Virus genome (UHGV): UHGV-0149956
Reading direction: 5' to 3' (one strand)
Source of the DNA: a virus
DNA: 64,000 bases
A program made the translations under genes and the position numbers. The notes beneath the pieces are model-generated. The model was given only the letters and a program-made list of their open reading frames with translations, searched no databases and was not told where the DNA came from. Positions within the stretch are counted from its first letter, which is position 1. Each line of letters opens with the position of its first letter. Positions 1-11,500 of this stretch are shown piece after piece.

Positions 1-377
1 CAAAGGTTTACCCAACGTTAAAATTACCTGATTTACGCGGTGAGTTTATCCGTGGCTGGGATGATGGGCGAGGGATTGACTCTGGTCGCTCTATTTTAAG
101 CGAGCAAGGATATGCAACGGAGGATCATGCTCACGGATTACCGTCAAAATCAACCGTAGCAACTGACCGCTCAATTAATTTCTACTTTGACGAGGCATGG
201 GCTACTAGTGGTAATACGGGAGTTATCAGATGGGGGAACACAAGCGATGCAGGATTGCCAGCCCCTAATTATGGAACTTTTAAAACATATAAACAGTCCG
301 TAGCTAATTTAGGTACTGCTGGCTTAGAAACCCGCCCTCGTAATATTGCATTTAATTATATTGTGAGGGCGGATTAA
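1..377 (+). CDS. Tail-fibre C-terminal cassette, 5' truncated by window edge, opposite orientation to the main array
   Basis: Frame 3 translates to KVYPTLKLPDLRGEFIRGWDDGRGIDSGR...ETRPRNIAFNYIVRAD, stop TAA 375-377; shares the conserved N-proximal and C-terminal blocks of the minus-strand cassettes. Confidence 0.7.
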   Translation, partial: KVYPTLKLPDLRGEFIRGWDDGRGIDSGRSILSEQGYATEDHAHGLPSKSTVATDRSINFYFDEAWATSGNTGVIRWGNTSDAGLPAPNYGTFKTYKQSVANLGTAGLETRPRNIAFNYIVRAD

Positions 378-382
378 TTATA

Positions 383-994
383 TCAACTGGCTGTAGAAAG
401 TTGTTTTTCAGGCCAGTTGAGATCTGGTGCCGTGGTTAAATCCATCGCGTTCAGCTCGTCTATATAATCTAGCACGGAGTTAAGCTGCGTGGTTTCTGCC
501 TGCGTCAACTTCCGTCCAGCCCGTAATTTCAACTGAATCAGACTAATGGAATCCATCGCAGTATCAATCAATGACTGACGTTTTGTTTCTGCTGCCTCTA
601 CAGCTGCACTATGTTGAGCCTCAGTATCAACCACCCATTTCTCTCCATCCCATTTGTCGTATGGTGTTAGCGGGGCGATAGTGGTTGTATTTTCCGGATA
701 GTCACCCAACACCGTGATTTCTTCGGGATTCCCAGTGTCAATGCTATAGACAGTTTCGCCACGATGATCTGGCACATACTCCCATGAACTTAAATCCTCT
801 GAACGGAGAATCGCATAACCTGCTTTATGTGAGCCTGGAGCATCCAAACAAGAATTTGCCGGAATACCAACGCCAACAGCAAGATATTCAGTTGATGCAG
901 AAATATATTCCCGATTACCACCATCATAGTTATAAACGATAATGTTTCCTGCCTGTATGGCTATAAGTTCGCTATTTAATATCGCATTATCCAT
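383..994 (-). CDS. U: Tail fibre assembly chaperone (Tfa / U-like)
   Basis: 203-aa ORF immediately after the last fibre cassette; start overlaps the cassette stop by 1 nt (TAATG); composition typical of Tfa family. Confidence 0.65.
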   Translation of the reverse strand: MDNAILNSELIAIQAGNIIVYNYDGGNREYISASTEYLAVGVGIPANSCLDAPGSHKAGYAILRSEDLSSWEYVPDHRGETVYSIDTGNPEEITVLGDYPENTTTIAPLTPYDKWDGEKWVVDTEAQHSAAVEAAETKRQSLIDTAMDSISLIQLKLRAGRKLTQAETTQLNSVLDYIDELNAMDLTTAPDLNWPEKQLSTAS

Positions 995-1452
995 TATGCT
1001 GCTCTCACAATATAATTGAAGGCAATGTTACGTGGGCGGGTTTCATTCCCCCCAGATAACTCCGTTCTGTATTGACTGGTAAATTTACCATTAATCGCTC
1101 CTTGCCGGACGGCGTTATCTGTCGACAACAGACTATCCCCCCCTCTGTCATTTGGCACCAATACCGTGTTATCCCACGCGTCCCATGACCGAATATTATG
1201 ATAATGACTTCCTGTTAACCACCCCTGTATGCTTAAGATGACCCTTCCCGCATCCACACCTCGCCCATCATCCCAACCACGGATAAACTCACCGCGTAAA
1301 TCCGGTAATTTATTGGTGGGGTAGGCCTTTGCCAGTTTGGGATACATTTCAGAAGAAAATGCTGCACCATTGCATTTTAGCCAGCCCGTTGGTGGTGTTT
1401 CTAAGGGCCACGGAACGGGCACACCAACAGGCAGTGCAGAGCCTTCCCCCAA
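994..1452 (-). CDS. Tail-fibre C-terminal cassette 5 (receptor-binding tip module)
   Basis: Conserved ~70-aa block GEGSALPVGVPVPWP...LRGEFIRGWDDGRG, variable middle, conserved end RPRNIAFNYIVRAA; begins at TTG inside a crossover-like site. Confidence 0.6.
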   Translation of the reverse strand: MGEGSALPVGVPVPWPLETPPTGWLKCNGAAFSSEMYPKLAKAYPTNKLPDLRGEFIRGWDDGRGVDAGRVILSIQGWLTGSHYHNIRSWDAWDNTVLVPNDRGGDSLLSTDNAVRQGAINGKFTSQYRTELSGGNETRPRNIAFNYIVRAA

Positions 1453-1469
1453 ACCAACGTTTTTATGTG
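1444..1469 (-). other. Crossover-like site 5
   Basis: TTCCCCCAAACC-AA-CGTTTTTATGTG. Confidence 0.5.
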
Positions 1470-1966
1470 GCCCTTACAATGTAATTAAAAGCAACGTTGC
1501 GGGGGCGCATTGATATCCATGCCCCGGTAAAATTATCCTCTGCCGTCCTTTGAGTGCCTGTTATGGAGTTATCTGATGATGCTGGAACATAATCGCTATT
1601 ATCTCCTGCTTTAGGATTAGCAGGGTTTCCAACAGTTATAACAGAATCAGCAGTAGCATAAGCGATACCTACTTTGACATTAGTAGTCAGATCGACACCG
1701 TAATAATCCTGCAAAGCTGTACGAATAAATGTTGCAGTCTGACCACTTAGCAATGAACGCCCTGTATCAATCCCTCTCGAATCATCCCAACCACGGATAA
1801 ACTCACCGCGTAAATCAGGTAATTTTAACGTTGGGTAAACCTTTGCCAGATTTGGGTACTTTTCAGAAGAAAATGCTGCTCCGTTACATTTCAGCCACCC
1901 CGTTGGTGGTGTGGCGGAGGGCCATGGAACAGGTACACCAACGGGCAGCGCCGAGCCTTCCCCTAA
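1463..1966 (-). CDS. Tail-fibre C-terminal cassette 4 (in-frame module without start codon)
   Basis: Frame is open from the crossover-like site to stop at 1463; the codon corresponding to the TTG of other cassettes is TTA here, so the ORF track only shows 1463-1753. Confidence 0.55.
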   Translation of the reverse strand, partial: LGEGSALPVGVPVPWPSATPPTGWLKCNGAAFSSEKYPNLAKVYPTLKLPDLRGEFIRGWDDSRGIDTGRSLLSGQTATFIRTALQDYYGVDLTTNVKVGIAYATADSVITVGNPANPKAGDNSDYVPASSDNSITGTQRTAEDNFTGAWISMRPRNVAFNYIVRAT

Positions 1967-1983
1967 ACCAACGTTTTTATGCC
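1958..1983 (-). other. Crossover-like site 4
   Basis: TTCCCCTAAACC-AA-CGTTTTTATGCC. Confidence 0.5.
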
Positions 1984-2438
1984 GCCCTTACGATATAATT
2001 AAAGGCAATATTACGAGGACGGTTTTCATTAGCTGTTGGCACGACACGAGAGGCGTCGAATCCAAGGTCATCGGTTTTGCCTATATCAGTTGTGTTATTC
2101 GGCATTCTCGCAGATCGTGTTCCTGCATCATAAAAAGCCCCTCTGATTGCATCAAAAGACATGCCAATCCCGCCATCTGCGAACCCCTCAATATTTCTTA
2201 TTGCATCCCCCTGTGAAGATAATAATTGTCGCCCGGCATCCACACCACGTCCGTCATCCCAGCCACGAATAAATTCACCGCGTAAATCCGGCAATTTATT
2301 AGTAGGGTAAGCCTTTGCCAGATTTGGGTACTTTTCAGAAGAAAATGCTGCTCCGTTACATTTCAGCCACCCCGTTGGCGGAGTGGCTGAGGGCCACGGA
2401 ACAGGTACGCCAACAGGCAATGCTGAGCCTTCCCCCAA
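1977..2438 (-). CDS. Tail-fibre C-terminal cassette 3
   Basis: Same conserved N block and C-terminal RPRNIAFNYIVRAA with distinct variable core. Confidence 0.6.
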   Translation of the reverse strand: MGEGSALPVGVPVPWPSATPPTGWLKCNGAAFSSEKYPNLAKAYPTNKLPDLRGEFIRGWDDGRGVDAGRQLLSSQGDAIRNIEGFADGGIGMSFDAIRGAFYDAGTRSARMPNNTTDIGKTDDLGFDASRVVPTANENRPRNIAFNYIVRAA

Positions 2439-2455
2439 ACCAACGTTTTCATGCC
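2430..2455 (-). other. Crossover-like site 3
   Basis: TTCCCCCAAACC-AA-CGTTTTCATGCC. Confidence 0.5.
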
Positions 2456-2877
2456 GCCCTTACGATATAATTAAACGCAATGTTACGAGGACGAATGGTT
2501 ACATAATTAACCCCATCACCTCGTGAAGGCCCTGCAAATGAAAAACGGGAAAATCCTGGTTGGTTAGAAACAATTTGGTCATAGTTATTGATTGAATGAC
2601 CAGACCCAATGTCGAAATTACCTCCGTAATGAGAAAAACTTGTACCATCCTGCCCTGAAAGCAGGGTACGTCCCGCATCAATCCCGCGCCCATCATCCCA
2701 GCCACGGATAAATTCACCGCGTAAATCCGGTAATTTATTGGTGGGGTAGGCTTTTGCCAGTTTGGGATACATTTCAGAAGAAAATGCTGCACCATTGCAT
2801 TTTAGCCAGCCCGTTGGTGGTGTTTCTAAGGGCCACGGAACGGGCACACCAACAGGCAGTGCAGAGCCTTCCCCCAA
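2449..2877 (-). CDS. Tail-fibre C-terminal cassette 2
   Basis: Same conserved blocks, distinct variable core. Confidence 0.6.
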   Translation of the reverse strand: MGEGSALPVGVPVPWPLETPPTGWLKCNGAAFSSEMYPKLAKAYPTNKLPDLRGEFIRGWDDGRGIDAGRTLLSGQDGTSFSHYGGNFDIGSGHSINNYDQIVSNQPGFSRFSFAGPSRGDGVNYVTIRPRNIAFNYIVRAA

Positions 2878-2894
2878 ACCAACGTTTTTATGCC
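2869..2894 (-). other. Crossover-like site 2
   Basis: TTCCCCCAAACC-AA-CGTTTTTATGCC. Confidence 0.5.
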
Positions 2895-3355
2895 GCCCTT
2901 ACGATGTAATTAAATGCAATATTACGGGGGCGGGTTTCAGATGCTGTACGAACTGAGCGAGAGGCGTCGAATGTCCAGTTATAAGAGCCATAACCCTCAA
3001 TAATTTCCGTTTCCTTTAGGCCTGTAGATAATACTTGACCATGTTGACTAAATGGCCCTGAACTAAGTACATCTCTAAAAAGCTGAGTACGCCCGAAAGA
3101 ACCAACAATATTCTGAATTGCATCATTCTGTGCAGATAATAAATTACGGCCAGAGTCAATCCCCCGCCCGTCATCCCAGCCGCGAATAAATTCGCCCCGT
3201 AGATCCGGCAATTTATTAGTAGGGTAAACCTTTGCCAGATTTGGGTACTTTTCAGAAGAAAATGCTGCACCATTGCATTTCAGCCACCCCGTTGGCGGTG
3301 TGGCTGAGGGCCATGGAACAGGTACACCAACGGGCAGTGCCGAGCCTTCCCCCAA
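2888..3355 (-). CDS. Tail-fibre C-terminal cassette 1
   Basis: Same conserved blocks, distinct variable core; lies 10 nt after the stop of the main fibre gene. Confidence 0.6.
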   Translation of the reverse strand: MGEGSALPVGVPVPWPSATPPTGWLKCNGAAFSSEKYPNLAKVYPTNKLPDLRGEFIRGWDDGRGIDSGRNLLSAQNDAIQNIVGSFGRTQLFRDVLSSGPFSQHGQVLSTGLKETEIIEGYGSYNWTFDASRSVRTASETRPRNIAFNYIVRAA

Positions 3356-3372
3356 ACCAACGTTTTTATGCC
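3347..3372 (-). other. Crossover-like site 1
   Basis: TTCCCCCAAACC-AA-CGTTTTTATGCC, direct repeat of site 0 left half and core; spans stop of S and start of cassette 1. Confidence 0.5.
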
Positions 3373-5390
3373 GCCCTTACGATGTAATTAAATGCAACGT
3401 TGCGAGGGCGAGTTTCTGTACCTACATTTCCACTAATTTCACCATAACGTTTAACACTACGAGAGCTAATAGCTCGTAGTGAGGAAGGCACCTTATGACC
3501 GGGTTCGTCCGTTTTAACTATTCCCCCGTCACCGTATGTAGCTAGTATTCCTGGATTTACGCCTTCCCGTGCACTTCCTGCGGCGAGTCCGTCCCCTGTC
3601 CATAATTCCATATAGTGTGCATGGTCCAAAATTGTGTGTGGCTGCCAATTAAGCAAAGCGCGGCCAGCATCCACCCCGCGCCCATCATCCCAGCCACGGA
3701 TAAATTCACCGCGTAAATCAGGTAATTTTAACGTTGGGTAAACCTTTGCCAGATTTGGGTACTTTTCAGAAGAAAATGCTGCACCATTGCATTTCAGCCA
3801 CCCCGTTGGCGGTGTGGCTGAGGGCCATGGAATAGGTACACCAACGGGCAGCGCCGAGCCTTCCCCTAAACCAAGGTAATCAAGAACGCTCTGAATACTG
3901 GTCTTACCAAGAATGGCGCGTCCAACACTTGTCAATGCAGTTAACGCGGCACGATCAACACCTGTGAAATAAGGGAGTTTATCTGCTGCTGTAGCTAGTG
4001 CCGCTAGAGCAGTGAGCGTAGCGTCTGCCGCTTGCTTTCCATTAGCCAAATCATATGCAGCCTTGACAGCTTTCGGTGTGGCGGCCAGCACTTCAGACGT
4101 GCTGTTAGTGGCACTACTGAGCTGAGTGATGCCTTTCGCTGTCAATGAAGCTGTTGGCACACCAGTGATCTGATTCCAGGGATGTGTATGACTGGATGGT
4201 GCCTTTCCGGCTGCTAGATCGTATGCAGCTTTAACCGCTTTTGGAGTTGCAGCTAATGTTTCAGAAGTGCTGTTGGTGTCGCTACTGAGCTGAACTATCC
4301 CTTTTTGTGTCGTGGTTGCATCCTGGGCTGTATACTTCCCGTTAGCCAAATCATATGCAGCCTTGACAGCTTTCGGTGTGGCGGCCAGCACTTCGGACGT
4401 ACTGTTAGTGGCACTACTGAGCTGAGTGATGCCTTTCGCTGTCAATGAAGCTGTTGGCACACCAGTGATCTGATTCCAGGGATGTGTATGACTGGATGGT
4501 GCCTTTCCGGCTGCTAGATCGTATGCAGCTTTAACCGCTTTTGGAGTTGCAGCTAATGTTTCAGAAGTGCTGTTGGTGTCGCTACTGAGCTGAACTATCC
4601 CTTTTTGTGTCGTGGTTGCATCCTGGGCTGTATACTTCCCGTTAGCCAAATCATATGCAGCCTTGACAGCTTTCGGTGTGGCGGCCAGCACTTCGGACGT
4701 ACTGTTAGTGGCACTACTGAGCTGAACTAATCCCTTTTGCGTTGTGCTTGCATCCTGCGCCGTATATTTGCTTTTCGCCAGATCGTAGGCTTTTTTAACT
4801 GCCAGCGAACTCGCAGCAACATCACTTCTGGTACTGGTTACAGAGTCTGAAATATCAATGCCGATCGTGCGGTTGATACGCTCGGATGTATCAATCATCT
4901 CTTGAGTAATGGTAGATACGCCAGCAGGGATATTCACCGTACAAACCAGCAGTTCCCCATCACCTAACTGATATGAATCGGTATAGGTTCTGGCAACAAA
5001 TTCAGCTGCATGAATATGTGACGCGGTATTCACCTGATAGGTATCTTCTCCAAGAAGGTATCTTCCCTTCAGCACAATTGCATATTTCTTGCCTGCGTTA
5101 AGTGCAAGAGAGATATCCTTACGATGCTGAATAGTTACCTGGTAGAATTCACCAATATCCACTGACGCCGCGCCAGCGGTTTTATCTCCATCCACTGAGG
5201 TGATTAACAGGTTCATTCCACCGCCAGGCTTAGGCAAGAAACCAGCATAAAATCCCGGGTCAACAATTCCCCTGAATTTTCGGTTTAGAGCGGCTGACAG
5301 ATATGGTTCGTGGTATTGCACATCAGCCACCAGAGCCAACGACTCGGGTGATGGGTAAGTAACCGATGTAACAACTGTAACGTCATTCAT
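3366..5390 (-). CDS. S: Tail fibre protein (S-like) with ~30-aa repeats and expressed C-terminal tip
   Basis: ATG at 5390 with AAGGA 5-8 nt upstream; internal repeats TAQDA-TTQKG-VQLSS-TNSTSE-LAATPKAVKAAYDLA; C-terminal 150 aa homologous to the downstream cassettes. Confidence 0.8.
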   Translation of the reverse strand: MNDVTVVTSVTYPSPESLALVADVQYHEPYLSAALNRKFRGIVDPGFYAGFLPKPGGGMNLLITSVDGDKTAGAASVDIGEFYQVTIQHRKDISLALNAGKKYAIVLKGRYLLGEDTYQVNTASHIHAAEFVARTYTDSYQLGDGELLVCTVNIPAGVSTITQEMIDTSERINRTIGIDISDSVTSTRSDVAASSLAVKKAYDLAKSKYTAQDASTTQKGLVQLSSATNSTSEVLAATPKAVKAAYDLANGKYTAQDATTTQKGIVQLSSDTNSTSETLAATPKAVKAAYDLAAGKAPSSHTHPWNQITGVPTASLTAKGITQLSSATNSTSEVLAATPKAVKAAYDLANGKYTAQDATTTQKGIVQLSSDTNSTSETLAATPKAVKAAYDLAAGKAPSSHTHPWNQITGVPTASLTAKGITQLSSATNSTSEVLAATPKAVKAAYDLANGKQAADATLTALAALATAADKLPYFTGVDRAALTALTSVGRAILGKTSIQSVLDYLGLGEGSALPVGVPIPWPSATPPTGWLKCNGAAFSSEKYPNLAKVYPTLKLPDLRGEFIRGWDDGRGVDAGRALLNWQPHTILDHAHYMELWTGDGLAAGSAREGVNPGILATYGDGGIVKTDEPGHKVPSSLRAISSRSVKRYGEISGNVGTETRPRNVAFNYIVRAA
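3861..3886 (-). other. Crossover-like site 0 (Din/invertase-family-like 26-mer) at constant/variable junction of S
   Basis: TTCCCCTAAACC-AA-GGTAATCAAGAA; resembles hix/gix/cix sites as recalled (12-bp half sites flanking a 2-bp AA core). Confidence 0.55.
4021..4725. repeat. Near-perfect 300-bp tandem repeat (2.3 copies) inside the fibre gene
   Basis: Sequence lines starting at 4321 and 4621 are identical, and lines 4141/4441, 4201/4501, 4261/4561 are identical; period exactly 300 bp. Confidence 0.9.
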
Positions 5391-5401
5391 CAAGCATATC
5401 C

Positions 5402-5836
5402 TTATGCTGTAGTCGAGTTTATGGCCATAACTGCGGTATATGTTTTGCCCACATACAGCGAGTCTTCTTGGACACAAATAATGGCGATTGGCTTATTCTC
5501 GTTATCCAGAACAACCAGAGTGTTGAATGGGTAGTTTTTCCCTTCCTGCAACTGACTTTGATCAAGGTCCATTCGGACAGTAATTATCCCGCCTGAGTAG
5601 GTTGGGACGAGGTTGATGGTGCAAAATTGACTGGTCAGTTCTGCCAGATCGAAAGCCTTTGGCAGTTCTCCAATCTCATAAGTGCCATCTCCTTTCTTAG
5701 TAACCAGTGAACTGGTACCGAAAACGGCCTTGCTGATTAAAAATCGAGAGCCTTTGTTAATGGACGATTCAGCGCGCCGCTGATAGTAATAGTCCAACAA
5801 CTGACTCTTATAGAGGTTTGTTGAGACGTCAGACAT
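5402..5836 (-). CDS. Tail fibre-associated structural protein (R-like)
   Basis: 144-aa ORF ending 12 nt upstream of S start; operon position. Confidence 0.45.
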   Translation of the reverse strand: MSDVSTNLYKSQLLDYYYQRRAESSINKGSRFLISKAVFGTSSLVTKKGDGTYEIGELPKAFDLAELTSQFCTINLVPTYSGGIITVRMDLDQSQLQEGKNYPFNTLVVLDNENKPIAIICVQEDSLYVGKTYTAVMAINSTTA

Positions 5837-5914
5837 GATTTTCCCTAATCAATGTTGTGAAGCCTCATTGTAAGATAAGTAACTTGTCACCCCGCCCTGC
5901 GGACGGGGTGATTG

Positions 5915-6754
5915 TCACGCATCGCTATCCAACAGCAAATCATCTGCGCGGGTGCGATCAAACGTAGGCGTTGCTTTCACAATAGTGCCGCCCGGCGTTG
6001 CAGTGATCGGGGCGTTAATCGACGTAACTTCAGTAAGCGAAGTTGTATCCGAAGTTTCAAACCAGCAGAATGCTTTTTCGGTATCAGAAATCTCATTCAA
6101 AGTGATCATGTCGGCCTGTTCATTTACAACAACCGACAAATAGAGCGTAAGCCCATCAAACACTATATGCAGTGGCAGTAGAGGCTTTACGAACTGATTA
6201 AACTTTCTGAGAATTTCTTCTGTAATTGCGGACTGATCTATCGTTCCAGTAATACCCATTGTCCGGGCCAAGTCGTTTATGGGAATACTGATCATTCCTC
6301 TGGAAGTCAGAAACATCTCGCCGAATGTGCCGCCGGTGGTTTCCAGTGTGCTTTCTGGAATCAGGACCGTGCCATAGGGATGACGTTCAAAGTCCACCGG
6401 AGCATATATGGGATCCCATAAAACCGATATACCGTTAAATTCGCGATAAATTGTCTGGTTTATAGGGCGTTCAGTACCCTTAAAATGGATCTCATCAAAC
6501 CGCTGTTGTAACAACATCGGAACGGAAGATGAATTCGACGTTCTGATAGTAAAAAACTGGCCAAGTTCATTTGTCCTAGTCTCCAGATCCTCCTTGCTCA
6601 TGGAGAAAATAGACTTCCGGTTGGTAATTCGCTCCAACCATGGGTCAACAAAGGTGTCCATCATTGACTGAACCAAATCAGCCAATGATTTATAAAGTAA
6701 TGACTTTTGCTTAGCTGATGTAAGCCGGTTATTAAACCAGGAACGCTGCATCAC
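5915..6754 (-). CDS. Virion structural protein, probable baseplate component
   Basis: 279-aa ORF, ATGA overlap with upstream gene; position in baseplate/fibre operon. Confidence 0.4.
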   Translation of the reverse strand: MMQRSWFNNRLTSAKQKSLLYKSLADLVQSMMDTFVDPWLERITNRKSIFSMSKEDLETRTNELGQFFTIRTSNSSSVPMLLQQRFDEIHFKGTERPINQTIYREFNGISVLWDPIYAPVDFERHPYGTVLIPESTLETTGGTFGEMFLTSRGMISIPINDLARTMGITGTIDQSAITEEILRKFNQFVKPLLPLHIVFDGLTLYLSVVVNEQADMITLNEISDTEKAFCWFETSDTTSLTEVTSINAPITATPGGTIVKATPTFDRTRADDLLLDSDA

Positions 6755-8184
6755 TCCTCCTCATACGAAATATTAAAGGTGGAGTTTTCTGTATCCAGAT
6801 AAACGAAATCGTAAAAGCCGTTGGACTCATTCCACTCGACAAATTCCAGATAAAAGTCGCGGAAATAACCCAGCGTTTCGATAAATGCCCAAACGTCTTT
6901 TTTCTTGATTAGGATGTACTTGCCGACACGGTTCGGATCAAAGAAAGTTGAGTCACGCCCAAATTTTGTTTCCAGTGCCGACTTCAGCTCATCAGTCACG
7001 TTCTCAATGGTCAGGCTTGCCGATATCCGCCCAGTGATGGTGATCTTAAAGGGTAGTTTTCTGACCTCTTTATACGAGAATTTCTTGTTCAACTCATTCG
7101 GCACCTTCTTAAAGGCGGCCAGGATCATTTCTTCAAGCTCTGACTGGCTTTTGTTTGGATGCCATCCTGAAATAAATATCTTATTGATATTCCGAACATT
7201 ATAAGCACCATCTAATTTCTCTTGCTGGCCTTCGCCCCATGCCTTTACCCAGGACAGTCCCGGGATGTTACGCACCAGAAAATACGTATAGTCCCCGCCC
7301 CATACGACCTGATCATCATAGGCAAGGTAATATTGTGCACGGTTACGTGTGATCTCCGTTGTTTCAGCATCGGTACCTGCGGTTATAGGTGTCGTTGTCT
7401 TAACTGAAATCAAATTAGCTAAATTAGCCGCAGAATCAACAGGAGTCAGGTTTTGGCCAGCAACCAGGGTTATATCGCCGTTGGTGCACCATACCTTAAG
7501 CGTAATTGTCGAGCCTTCTGGCGGTATTTGCCCAATTAGCCCATCGCCGAATCGGACACCCAACTGTTCGGATGGTTTATAAAACTCAACGTAGACCTGG
7601 CTTTTACTACCAGCTAACCGGAACATTGTGCTGGAAGACCACTGCGTGGTCTTACCATCGGTCGTCACGAATACTTCCAGCTTATAGCAGACAGCAGTGA
7701 GAGCCTTTGATAACACGACTTCCAGAAATTCTTTGGCAGCCGTAACGGTATATGTCACCTCCTGGATTTCCAACTGTGCCACTTCTACCGTACCGGTGCC
7801 GTCAACCAACCTGCATACATCCATAGTCATGTAAGGGTACTGGTCGTCAGATATTAAAGGCATGTTTTTGGGAATTACCGCTGGGGCATCTTCACTTGTG
7901 GCGGTGATCTCAATCATCCCCGATGACGGTGTTGGCTTGGTACCAACGTAACTATTCGTTTCTGCCGCTGCCAGGATAGAGGAACGCCGCGTCGCGGTCG
8001 ATATAAAGCCTTCAGCCAGCGCCGCATCGGCATACTGAAAGCACCTGTAGACAATCTGGGTAATAAACAATGTCAGCATCGAGACAAATTGAGAGCCGAC
8101 AAACTTCGACCAGAATGAATCTTTCTCGACAAGCTCTTCAAACTCTGCACGAATACTGTCTTTAGTCGGTGTTGTTTTACTCAT
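6751..8184 (-). CDS. Virion structural protein, probable baseplate wedge
   Basis: 477-aa ORF translationally coupled on both sides. Confidence 0.4.
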   Translation of the reverse strand: MSKTTPTKDSIRAEFEELVEKDSFWSKFVGSQFVSMLTLFITQIVYRCFQYADAALAEGFISTATRRSSILAAAETNSYVGTKPTPSSGMIEITATSEDAPAVIPKNMPLISDDQYPYMTMDVCRLVDGTGTVEVAQLEIQEVTYTVTAAKEFLEVVLSKALTAVCYKLEVFVTTDGKTTQWSSSTMFRLAGSKSQVYVEFYKPSEQLGVRFGDGLIGQIPPEGSTITLKVWCTNGDITLVAGQNLTPVDSAANLANLISVKTTTPITAGTDAETTEITRNRAQYYLAYDDQVVWGGDYTYFLVRNIPGLSWVKAWGEGQQEKLDGAYNVRNINKIFISGWHPNKSQSELEEMILAAFKKVPNELNKKFSYKEVRKLPFKITITGRISASLTIENVTDELKSALETKFGRDSTFFDPNRVGKYILIKKKDVWAFIETLGYFRDFYLEFVEWNESNGFYDFVYLDTENSTFNISYEEE

Positions 8185-8540
8185 AGCACCACGTCCTGTG
8201 TGATAGTTATATCCCTGATACGAATGGATATTTTCAACTTATCAAAAGCATCTCCCTCGGCTACTGACAAGCCAGAAATCGGTATGTCAGGTAAATCTAC
8301 CGTCAGTTTTTGCAACAGCATTGCCTCAACCGCAATTTGAACATGCGACAAGTTGGTCGGTTCGTGTTTAAACAGCGGTAAAACATTGCCCCATGACGGA
8401 TCTCCGTATACCTCACCCTGATAAGTGTTTAGCCACTCATATAAACGAGCGCCCCAGGCCTCCTCCTGGGACTCATACGTTTTTACGCCGGATAACTCCA
8501 GCGTCAGCAAAGGATCAATTTCGTTATTGTTGGCCATCAA
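8181..8540 (-). CDS. Small baseplate-associated protein (W/gp25-like position)
   Basis: 119-aa ORF coupled between Sit-like gene and wedge gene. Confidence 0.35.
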   Translation of the reverse strand: MMANNNEIDPLLTLELSGVKTYESQEEAWGARLYEWLNTYQGEVYGDPSWGNVLPLFKHEPTNLSHVQIAVEAMLLQKLTVDLPDIPISGLSVAEGDAFDKLKISIRIRDITITQDVVL

Positions 8541-11500
8541 TCAACTCTCGCGTAGTCATTCATCAACGGATCATCAATTGACAGTGGTACCGTGCGCATA
8601 ACGCCCGGCTGAGGCGTGCTGACCTTTACGACAGTTCCCTGGCCTTTCGCCGAGTCTTTGGTGTGCTCTTCAATCCTGGCAAGCAATGAGGTCATCTGCG
8701 CAAACAGCCGCTTCGTTTCACCATCAAGTGAAACGGTATTATCAGCCAACTGCATTGTCGGCTTGGCACCGGAACCGCCAAGGTCACTAATAACCTGCCC
8801 GTCTATCTGCATACGACCGGTTGGTTGCTGCAAATCGTTGGCGGCAGTCGTCACCTGGGACGTGGAGGCTGGTTCAGGCGCATTATTTTTCCGCATCCCC
8901 GGCGAGTTGCGGAGTTTATCGAATAGTCCATCAATCCCCATTTGTGCGCCGAGATGGTCAAAGTAACTTGAGTTGTTGGCCACCGGACGCGCCTCTTCAA
9001 CTGGCATCGGAGTATCAACATACACATTGCCAGCTGCTGTTGCGGTCCCCTTCTCTCGTGCACGTTCTTCTAGCGTTCCCTGAACGACTTCCCGACGCAT
9101 CCCCCGGCCATTCATGAATTTGTTGACCAGATCGTTAACGCCAACAGCATTGCCGATTTTGTCGACCAGACCGCCTTTCTCAAACGGGCTATCACCAGGG
9201 GTAAACGCCAGGCCAGTATACTGATCGATAACAGCGTTATCAGGCAGTGGTCCCCTCACTCCATATTGCGCCCCACCCTGTGCTCCTGCTCCAGGTGTAT
9301 AGATTTCACCACCTAAATAGCGAGCACGATGAGTATTGACCTTGATCGCGTACTCACGGTTTTCTTTCGATAAGTCACCGGTGCCTTTTTTCCACTTATT
9401 AATAGTGCCAAACCCAGCATTATATGCAGTGATGGCCTCGTTTAAGTCTCCATTGGCTTGCTTAAGATACTTGCTCATGAGAAGAGCCGCAGCTTCTGCC
9501 GATTTCACAGGATCAAACGATTCACCTTCAGCTAAGCCAGTCTCTTCACGAGCAATCCCCGTGAACTGAAACATCCCCAGAGCACCGGTTTGGGATTTTG
9601 CATACGGATTACCACCAGATTCAGTTGCAGCAATCGCGTAAAGAGTGCCTTCTGGAAGACCGTATTTATTCTCTAGTTCGGCAAAATACGGAGCCAACTT
9701 ATCGAGATTTGCCTTACCTTCAGCGCCAAGACTTCCGACTTTTACATCTAAGTTGCCATTGTTGTAAGTATCCGCAGCTTTCTGAATGTCATTCCTGGTG
9801 CCAGTGGTATTAAGCGACGATGATGACGAGCTATTTTGACCAATAGCTTTATCAATTTTCTGCAACGCGCTATTGCCCGTTTCTACGGCATTTGCATTGA
9901 TAATCTGATTGGCAGTTTGTTTAACTGTTTTATTGCTATCTTTCGCTGTGTCCAGTGCCGCATTTATCACGCGGGTAGCAATATTACTCTGTTTGGCATC
10001 GGATTCAGTTTTAGAATCAGACGTCTCCTGGTGGCTATTAACCGGAGCTTTTAACTCCGGAGTGATTTCTTTCGCATTAGCCTCGCCGATCGGATTGGGT
10101 ATTTTTGATACAATCATTGCCGCAGGGGTATTTTTAACGGCATCAACCGCTGCATCTAATGCTTTACCAGGTAAATTTTTAACCCCATCCCAAATATTAC
10201 CAGCCGCCTCTTTAATGTGTTTCCCTGGGTTCTTAATGAAATCAATTGCACTATCAATTGCATCACTGAAAACCTGTTTCAGGTTATCAACAGTAAAGAA
10301 GTCTTTGATGGCATCCAGCTTTTCAAGCAGCTTATTAGATGTATCGCTAAACCATGCTGAAACAGCATCACCAATCTTTGCTGTGTAATCTTCGAACTTG
10401 GTAGAAATGGTGTCGCCAAGGTTAGAAATATATGTTTCTAAGTTGGTAATCCCACTATCAATGGCCTGGGCAATACTTTCCGTCGAAAATGATTGCAACA
10501 TATTGCCGATATCCTCAAATCCAAGTGATTTGAGAACCTCACCAATGGCGCTGCTAATACCAGATACCAGTCCCCCCATATCAAGAACATTGGCTAACGT
10601 ATAAGCGGCTTTTTGCTGGAATGATGGCTCTTGTCCTGATTTAAGCCCAAACGCTCGACGTTGCGCTTCTGTATCATTCCAACCGGTTACCGCATCATAA
10701 ATACCTCCAGCCACTGTGCCGACTAAGGGAATTGCGCGTAACGCCCCTTTACCAACTGCCTTTAATCCAAATTTACCTGCTGCCCGGGCAGCCAAATCTC
10801 CACCTTCATGGGCGATAGTCTTCTTGCCACCACCGCGTAGCATTCCTACAAGTTTCTTTGCCCCCAGAGCGCCAAAAGCGAGTGCTCCAGCTTTTTTCAG
10901 CATGCCACGCCCCATTAACAACGACGCGACGCCACCGGCCCCCTTCCCTAACAGGCTAAATAGTTTGGACAGCAAGCCGCCCTTCTTTTTCCCGGTGTTT
11001 TTGGCTATCTGATCAAGGGCGCTGAGAATCTTGTCATTGCCCTCTTTAATTTCGCTGGTCTGCTCCTGAAGTTCCTGAACCGTCCGTTTTTGGGTGTTAA
11101 CCTGAACGACATCGGCACTATTTTGCGATTTACGCCTAAAAAAACCTTTTCTACGGCTGTTATCGTCATTGCCACGAATCACATCGGCAATAGACTTTCT
11201 GGCGCCATTAAGCGATCCACCAACTTCTTTTGATATCCCGCCAAGCTCCTTCCCTGCTGCCCACAATGGACCAGCAACGGCATAACCTAACGCATCGACG
11301 GCACGAGTCTCTGAAGGGTTACCTATGCCTTCAGCTACTTTTGACAGTTTTTTTAATAAACCTGATTCAGCATTTAGACGCTCATCATCCTCTTTGCGCC
11401 TGGCCTTTTCAGCACGTTCAGCACGGGCATCTTCCGCTGCGGCCTTACTCCCTGACTTTCCAATAAAACGACCACGCGCATCGCGTTGGTTTTGGCTTTT

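Follow-up and report, generated by a model that had tools for sequence, protein, structure and literature searches.

The window analysed here is the whole 64-kb stretch (64,000 nucleotides) of UHGV virus genome UHGV-0149956, near the left end of which a row of tail-fibre tip cassettes lies behind gene S. In cassettes 1, 2, 3 and 5 the first-pass annotation saw the reading frame begin at a TTG codon within a crossover-like site, and it described cassette 4 as having lost this start codon since TTA stands in its place. The difference itself is real (TTA at 1964-1966, inside the 26-bp site), as is the open frame, whose 168 codons run to the conserved end as 167 sense codons and a stop at 1463-1465. 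This raises the question of what the codon does in this position and how such a frame would come to be expressed. We consider it very probable (roughly 0.88) that the window holds the right-hand part of a p15B-like, Min-type multiple DNA inversion region of a P1-like phage-plasmid, whose silent tips would be joined to the constant part of gene S, Sc, by inversion.

Anatomy of the tail-fibre region

The tail-fibre end of a P1-like phage-plasmid makes up the left 5.5 kb of the window, with all relevant features on the minus strand. The S-R-16 region of P1, P7, SJ46 and RCS47 is matched at 97% identity by positions 4702-6000, and the window's first 4 kb is matched by 222 PLSDB plasmids, nearly all of them non-mobilizable Escherichia plasmids. 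An IncY replicon is present in 2 relatives fetched from the PLSDB search, CP142560.1 (L002) and NZ_CP044439.1 (L003). The phage, plasmid and E. coli collections contained no identical record; the best match to the window reached 96.4% identity over 84%, and the missing left flank is therefore not recoverable.

Gene S as now assembled (3366..5390, minus strand) encodes 674 aa and consists of Sc and the expressed tip B0 (3366..3869, minus strand, 167 aa). Its P1-type start, MNDVTVV, corresponds to an ATG at 5390, the mechanical ORF reaching further to a TTG at 5477, and the protein contains six Phage_fiber_2 repeats and a Collar domain. Sc and B0 meet at the active crossover site (3861..3886, minus strand), which in the sense of S reads TTCTTGATTACC TT GGTTTAGGGGAA and contains a leucine codon TTA at 3867-3869. 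Within Sc, a 300-bp tandem repeat occupies 4035-4725 in 2.3 copies that are 98% identical. S is 674 aa long in the window and 974 aa in NZ_CP027133.1, and shaft length therefore differs among relatives by repeat copy number.

Five silent cassettes follow on the same strand, each opening at its own copy of the site. Cassette 1 with site 1 (3347-3372) spans 2888..3372, encodes 155 aa and has its TTG at 3353-3355 (cassette unit 2888-3355); cassette 2 with site 2 (2869-2894) spans 2449..2894, encodes 142 aa and has its TTG at 2875-2877 (unit 2449-2877); and cassette 3 with site 3 (2430-2455) spans 1977..2455, encodes 153 aa and has its TTG at 2436-2438 (unit 1977-2438). Cassette 4 with site 4 (1958-1983) spans 1463..1983 and encodes 167 aa (unit 1463-1966), and cassette 5 with site 5 (1444-1469) spans 994..1469, encodes 152 aa and has its TTG at 1450-1452 (unit 994-1452). 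These are followed by the tail fibre assembly gene tfa (383..994, minus strand, 203 aa; Caudo_TAP 3e-30, phrog_105 1e-92), which has the same orientation as S in the window isomer. At the extreme left, on the plus strand, lies the 3′ part of another tip cassette (1..377), which ends in …RPRNIAFNYIVRAD and a stop and is cut by the window edge before it reaches its own site. Its tip type is also found in L002, L004, L005, L007 and L044. The crossover site of this opposite-oriented cassette must be located beyond the left window edge, as must the invertase gene and any more cassettes. With 6 sites in the window and one cut-off cassette, the element has at least 7 cassettes.

The crossover sites share a 14-mer, TTCCCCYAAACCAA, that occurs in six copies on the plus strand at 1444, 1958, 2430, 2869, 3347 and 3861. 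Matches to the crossover site number 7, against a mean of 1.02 in dinucleotide shuffles, and 0/100 shuffles reach 7. The full sites are about 26 bp long and consist of two imperfectly symmetric 12-bp halves that flank a 2-bp core; in the sense of S (minus strand) the 12-bp left half is followed by the core TT and by the right half GGTTT(G/A)GGGGAA. The right half, GGTTTRGGGGAA, encodes G-L-G-E, and each of the six sites sits exactly at the opening of a cassette frame, the one at 3861-3886 lying in frame at the Sc/tip boundary.

All six sites are direct repeats, and only this single orientation is visible in the 64-kb window. Scanning the window and 84 fetched loci for the site showed that both orientations are present in 17 related loci, and that in 17/17 of these multi-site loci the sites fall into two successive runs of opposite orientation that are never interleaved. 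This is the pattern that shuffling by inversion alone preserves. The two further multi-site sources, L006 and the window, show a single orientation because they are cut. Relatives carry 5 to 9 sites, with up to 9 cassettes in CP142560.1. A TTT at seven sites was considered as a third allele and excluded, as it reflects one-base losses in the G5 run of two frameshift-ridden assemblies, L001 (ON470615.2) and L003 (NZ_CP044439.1). In many cassettes of both records the site's G5 run has shrunk to G4 and the frame is shifted, which fragments the tail-fibre annotation; errors of long-read assembly are the probable cause.

The TTR codon is an internal leucine codon of S

The junction of the expressed S gene reads GAT TAC CTT GGT TTA GGG GAA (…D-Y-L-G-L-G-E…) and thus also carries TTA, a point missed in the first reading of the sequence. 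The TTR codon is therefore an internal leucine of S (…DYLG-L-GEGS…). The TTG of cassettes 1, 2, 3 and 5 does lie inside the site, as had been claimed, but its use as a start does not hold, and nothing has been lost from cassette 4: TTA and TTG are synonymous spellings of leucine, and both occur at active junctions (8 TTA, 37 TTG). Automatic ORF finders and annotation pipelines take the TTG for a start once the sequence upstream of it has been removed. Cassette 4 and B0 additionally share neighbouring variants, GCG versus GCA and AACGTTAAAATTACCT, so the TTA is part of a common 5′-block haplotype and no private lesion. It is a synonymous third-position polymorphism of an internal leucine codon within the half-site. 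The lone G/A difference is not in itself beyond chance; the non-random part is the intact 167-codon frame, which ends in the conserved terminus RPRNVAFNYIVRAT with the shared motif RPRNVAFNYIVRA.

The remark that none of the cassettes has a convincing ribosome-binding site was borne out. Within GCATAAAAACGTTGGT, the 16 nt preceding the TTR codon, nothing resembles a Shine-Dalgarno sequence at a usable spacing. In 5/5 silent cassettes the frame opens just 7 codons before the TTR codon (a stop, then GRHKNVG), and in none of them do these 7 codons include an ATG, GTG or TTG. Promoter-like sites across the cassette region number 8, not above the 9.8 ± 3.0 found in shuffles. A duplex-energy score against the anti-Shine-Dalgarno sequence over 20 nt was discarded as non-discriminating: it gives -4.8 kcal/mol for most cassettes, near the value for real genes (median -5.4), and is uninformative because it is driven by GGCGG at -20 to -16, too far from the codon. 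Read-through or frameshifting from one cassette into the next was also considered; the frames shift +1 at each cassette junction, where no canonical slippery heptamer occurs.

Cassettes fused in some relatives are silent in others

Each cassette holds a complete Collar domain (E 3.9e-15 in cassette 4). Cassette 4 matches full-length fibre profiles, and these matches are confined to their C-terminal ends, within the last ~160 positions (phrog_523 at 480-638 of 673, phrog_3100 at 212-381 of 382 and phrog_2631 at 475-642 of 644). Further matches are to the T4 gp37 receptor-binding tip (2xgf, E 9e-13) and to a short tail fibre (9cuy, E 3e-14). Cassette 4 is a distal collar-plus-tip module with nothing to anchor it to a baseplate. 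Its variable part is found in at least 75 PLSDB plasmids and is at least 99% identical in 49 of them, which is not the behaviour of a decaying pseudogene.

We classified 142 clean cassettes from the window and the 84 fetched loci as fused, with at least 60 codons open upstream, or silent, with the frame closing within a few codons. TTA and TTG were found in 8 and 37 fused cassettes and in 17 and 78 silent ones, respectively (Fisher test, odds ratio 0.99, p = 1.0). The spelling of the codon is therefore unrelated to whether a tip is in use; selection may act in the silent state, and against this the Fisher test is powerless because each cassette alternates between the two states. The comparison also shows that right halves with A are recombination-competent. 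TTG is about 4.6 times commoner than TTA overall, with TTA in 18% of cassettes, and this excess may reflect site preference, shared ancestry or something else.

The cassette-4 type shows both spellings in both states, its 11 copies in the sampled loci comprising 3 fused with TTA, 2 fused with TTG, 3 silent with TTA and 3 silent with TTG. In NZ_CP027133.1 (L004, 5185-8109) an annotated 974-aa tail fibre has cassette 4 as its in-frame C-terminus; this protein ends …SVLNYLG-LGEGSALPVGVPVPWPSATPP…NFTGAWISMRPRNVAFNYIVRAA and equals cassette 4 save for the last residue. The IMG/VR contig L005 contains a 100%-identical cassette 4 after the Sc-type left half TTCTTAATTACC, with 201 open codons upstream. 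Fused in these two loci, the same cassette is silent in the window and in L002, L006, L007, L085 and L086. Conversely, B0, which is expressed in the window, is a silent cassette in L006 (where it has TTG), L002 and L064, and types B2, B3 and B5 are also seen in both states (type 2 fused in 2 relatives, type 3 in 1). Junctions in the fused genes fall exactly on the 2-bp core, with an Sc-type left half. A synthetic query for the junction of Sc with cassette 4 gave no clean single-piece match among plasmids because the Sc repeats vary in number, and the fusions were resolved by reading the loci directly. The proposal that the cassettes are silent modules, expressed only once joined to the constant region of S, is supported by the Sc-fused copies of cassette 4 in L004 and L005, by the silent copies of B0 elsewhere and by the C-terminal profile matches.

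The 3′ end of cassette 4 and the adjoining left half-site have two alleles. One ends …IVRAT and a stop with CACATAAAAACG as the next left half and is found in the window (1463-1469), L002, L006, L007, L085 and L086; the other ends …IVRAA and a stop with AGCATGAAAACG and is found in L004 (8103) and L005 (9512), which are both of the loci where the cassette is fused. In L005 (IMGVR_UViG_2690316325_000011, 7955-9000) the Sc fragment fused to cassette 4 is directly preceded by a terminal-type left half, AAGACTAAAACG, and a broken cassette of 8 codons. This order is unlike the usual layout, and the contig may be misassembled or rearranged.

A proposed route from storage to expression

Sc ends in a 26-bp site with a store of alternative receptor-binding tips behind it. 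Each tip opens with the cassette-side half-site and closes with the conserved …RPRNIAFNYIVRAA, whose stop codon already belongs to the following site's left half. We propose that a Gin/Pin/Min-type serine invertase would swap half-sites between inverted sites, exchange at the 2-bp core joining the left half of one to the right half of the other, and could in this way place any tip in frame behind Sc. The fused tip alone would be translated, the stored tips having no promoter, ribosome-binding site or start codon of their own. The moving unit would comprise a right half, a tip, its conserved end with the stop and the next left half. The layout predicted to be invariant is Sc, k forward units, a central unit (tip5 - tfa > < tipX) bounded by two right halves, reversed units and a terminal left half with the invertase. 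The window has k = 5, followed by the first part of the central unit.

Because all six window sites have the same orientation, cassette 4 would need an inverted site left of the window and at least two inversions to reach Sc. In the first, site 4 would recombine with an opposite-oriented site beyond the left window edge; in the second, the Sc site would recombine with site 4, by then reversed, to yield Sc-tip4-tip5-tfa in the correct orientation.

A tblastn search found no invertase gene in the 64-kb window; opposite-oriented sites likewise lie outside it, and the expected position of the gene is left of the edge. In relatives L002 and L003 a 190-aa serine invertase adjoins the terminal site, with E 2e-91 to the Mu Gin structure 3uj3. 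The terminal site in relatives reads AAGACTAAAACG TT GGTTTRGGGGAA and is followed by this serine recombinase at the far end of the region. The recombinase of the relatives belongs to the resolvase/invertase family and is not a tyrosine recombinase such as Rci. With these relatives as the guide, the window element would be expected to have invertase activity and to use the two-step route. Fis/enhancer-dependent invertases prefer inverted over direct sites. A preference for inverted over same-oriented sites has also been described in multiple-inversion systems (PMC11850598).

The single tfa gene and mosaicism among cassettes

Five untranslated cassettes separate tfa from S in the window isomer and place it 2.37 kb beyond the S stop. 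The ATG of tfa overlaps the stop of cassette 5 (TAATG, 992-996), so translational coupling would work only with cassette 5 as the fused tip. The left-edge cassette (1-377) converges on tfa and is without an assembly gene of its own; its fusion to Sc would leave tfa antisense to S. For such an isomer P1 and Mu possess a second tfa, U′, whereas the region in the window has a single tfa.

The conserved 5′ blocks of the cassettes, ~190 bp long in an alignment of window 1223-3900, are mosaic, with B2 and B5 nearly identical. The AACGTTAAAATTACCT variant (…PTLKLPD…) is common to B0, B4 and the left-edge cassette. This mosaicism suggests gene conversion among cassettes.

Alternative explanations

RefSeq annotates the cassettes as independent small tail genes starting at TTG, which would make cassette 4 a start-less gene, dead or dying. 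The complete Collar domain in each cassette fits such genes, as do the PGAP CDSs of 142-155 aa that start at TTG in many plasmids and the excess of TTG over TTA (~4.6 to 1), but Shine-Dalgarno sequences and promoters are absent, and in 37 full-length fibre genes this TTG serves as an internal leucine codon. Cassette 4 is moreover intact over 167 codons, at least 99% identical in its variable part in 49 plasmids and the C-terminus of S in L004 and L005, and the annotation of TTA cassettes is opportunistic (from a GTG at codon 11 in L085, absent in L086, a 96-aa fragment in L002). Lacking the Sc shaft, a tip would also presumably be unable to attach to the baseplate. We regard independent genes as very improbable. 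This agrees with the first-pass view that the cassettes are not five independent genes, which is supported by the missing Shine-Dalgarno sequences, by a start-like codon that is TTA in 18% of cassettes and by its place as an internal leucine codon in 45 fused genes. It is about as improbable, or marginally less so, that the TTG serves a translation relay in which ribosomes stop at the TAA of a tip and re-initiate 10 nt downstream at the TTG of the next cassette, shielding the distant tfa from transcriptional polarity, a relay that the TTA of cassette 4 would break. TTG predominates, the spacing from stop to TTG is a constant 13 nt at every junction, and the distance of tfa from the S stop and the TAATG overlap with cassette 5 are in keeping with such coupling; however, spacing and sequence are fixed anyway by the crossover site, and TTA occurs in 18% of cassettes, including 6/11 copies of the cassette-4 type. 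If the relay were true, cassette order would influence fibre assembly and not tip identity alone. The broader idea that the site TTG has a second role, either in a re-initiation relay or, in a milder variant, through a G/A difference that tunes the invertase's use of a given site, seems to us only slightly less far-fetched.

Marginally more credible than these, and still very improbable, is that tips are switched mainly by homologous recombination, through gene conversion or deletion in the manner of pilS/pilE, with exchange in the conserved 5′ blocks (~190 bp) and 3′ ends (~45 bp) of the cassettes. The direct orientation of all six window sites would suit this process, as would the variation among relatives from 5 to 9 sites, and the 5′ blocks, 88% identical and mosaic, point to past gene conversion in the variants shared by B0 and B4 (TTA, GCG and AACGTTAAAATTACCT) and in the similarity of B2 to B5. 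Against it, relatives have a Gin-like invertase and both site orientations, fused junctions lie exactly at the 2-bp core with an Sc-type left half, and wherever a locus shows both orientations its sites keep the convergent arrangement. Homologous exchange is probably a process that moulds the repertoire on an evolutionary time scale and not the means of switching tips, and we retain site-specific inversion as the explanation for the joining of tips to Sc.

Relation to known inversion systems

The finding is real but ordinary: a system of this kind has been known since the p15B Min work of 1990-92, and the biology described here adds little to it. Sandmeier, Iida and Arber reportedly described the Min multiple DNA inversion system of the plasmid prophage p15B in 1990 and 1992. 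With at least 7 cassettes in the window element and as many as 9 in relatives, the difference from p15B, which has six crossover sites, is one of degree. The two regions agree in their P1-like IncY backbone and in a lone S gene whose 5′ part is constant; both have several 26-bp sites, each opening an alternative 3′ tip in frame, one tfa gene within the invertible region and, at the far end, a Din-family serine invertase, the last of which is taken here from relatives. They differ in that the invertase and opposite-oriented sites of the window element lie outside the window. A passage in PMC6109161, citing Sandmeier 1992, describes the Min shufflon of p15B as a serine recombinase that makes multiple inversions leading to variable tail fibres, and the Min work is also cited in passages of PMC5903667 (Sandmeier 1990) and PMC6906374. 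On a similar plasmid, pJIE250-3, the invertase is 98.5% identical to Min (PMC6906374).

Among the systems with two alternative tips, the Cin/C-segment of P1 and the Gin/G-segment of Mu likewise join a constant Sc to an alternative Sv at a crossover site and use the same recombinase family, and the window shares the S-R-16 backbone of P1 at 97% identity to P1/P7. P1 and Mu, however, make do with two sites, a single invertible segment and two tips, and have a pair of tfa genes (U, U′), whereas many tips, nested segments and one tfa are found here. The shufflon of R64 and IncI plasmids (Rci, sfx, pilV) also combines a constant 5′ part with alternative 3′ ends chosen by multiple inversions with a bias towards inverted over direct sites (PMC11850598), but it uses the tyrosine recombinase Rci and unrelated sites, has a pilus adhesin as its target and is not homologous. 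The Rin shufflon of Bifidobacterium prophages similarly acts on a receptor-binding protein, with several Rv cassettes between short crossover sites (PMC6109161), but it has a tyrosine invertase, 11-bp sites and an unrelated phage lineage.

Consequences for annotation

RefSeq/PGAP calls TTG cassettes as "phage tail protein" CDSs of 142-155 aa, starting at the site, in many plasmids, and the treatment of cassette 4 with TTA varies. In pD72-mcr1 it is annotated from a GTG at codon 11 (L085, 1345-1818); in pSA186_4 (L086), where codon 11 is GTA, no annotation is listed; and in CP142560.1 (L002) there is a 96-aa "hypothetical protein" identical to the window ORF 1463-1753. The annotated cassette "starts" are opportunistic. 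In pD72-mcr1 (NZ_CP035313.1, 1901-3318) mcr-1.1 lies ~0.8 kb past the last annotated tip cassette, and the resistance insertion therefore abuts or truncates the inversion region.

The practical value of this analysis is in annotation, and some of the plasmids with cassette 4 also carry mcr-1. Pipelines call stored tips independent genes when the site reads TTG, and when it reads TTA the cassette is truncated or dropped. Such misannotation inflates protein families and hides the true host-range repertoire of widespread P1-like phage-plasmids.
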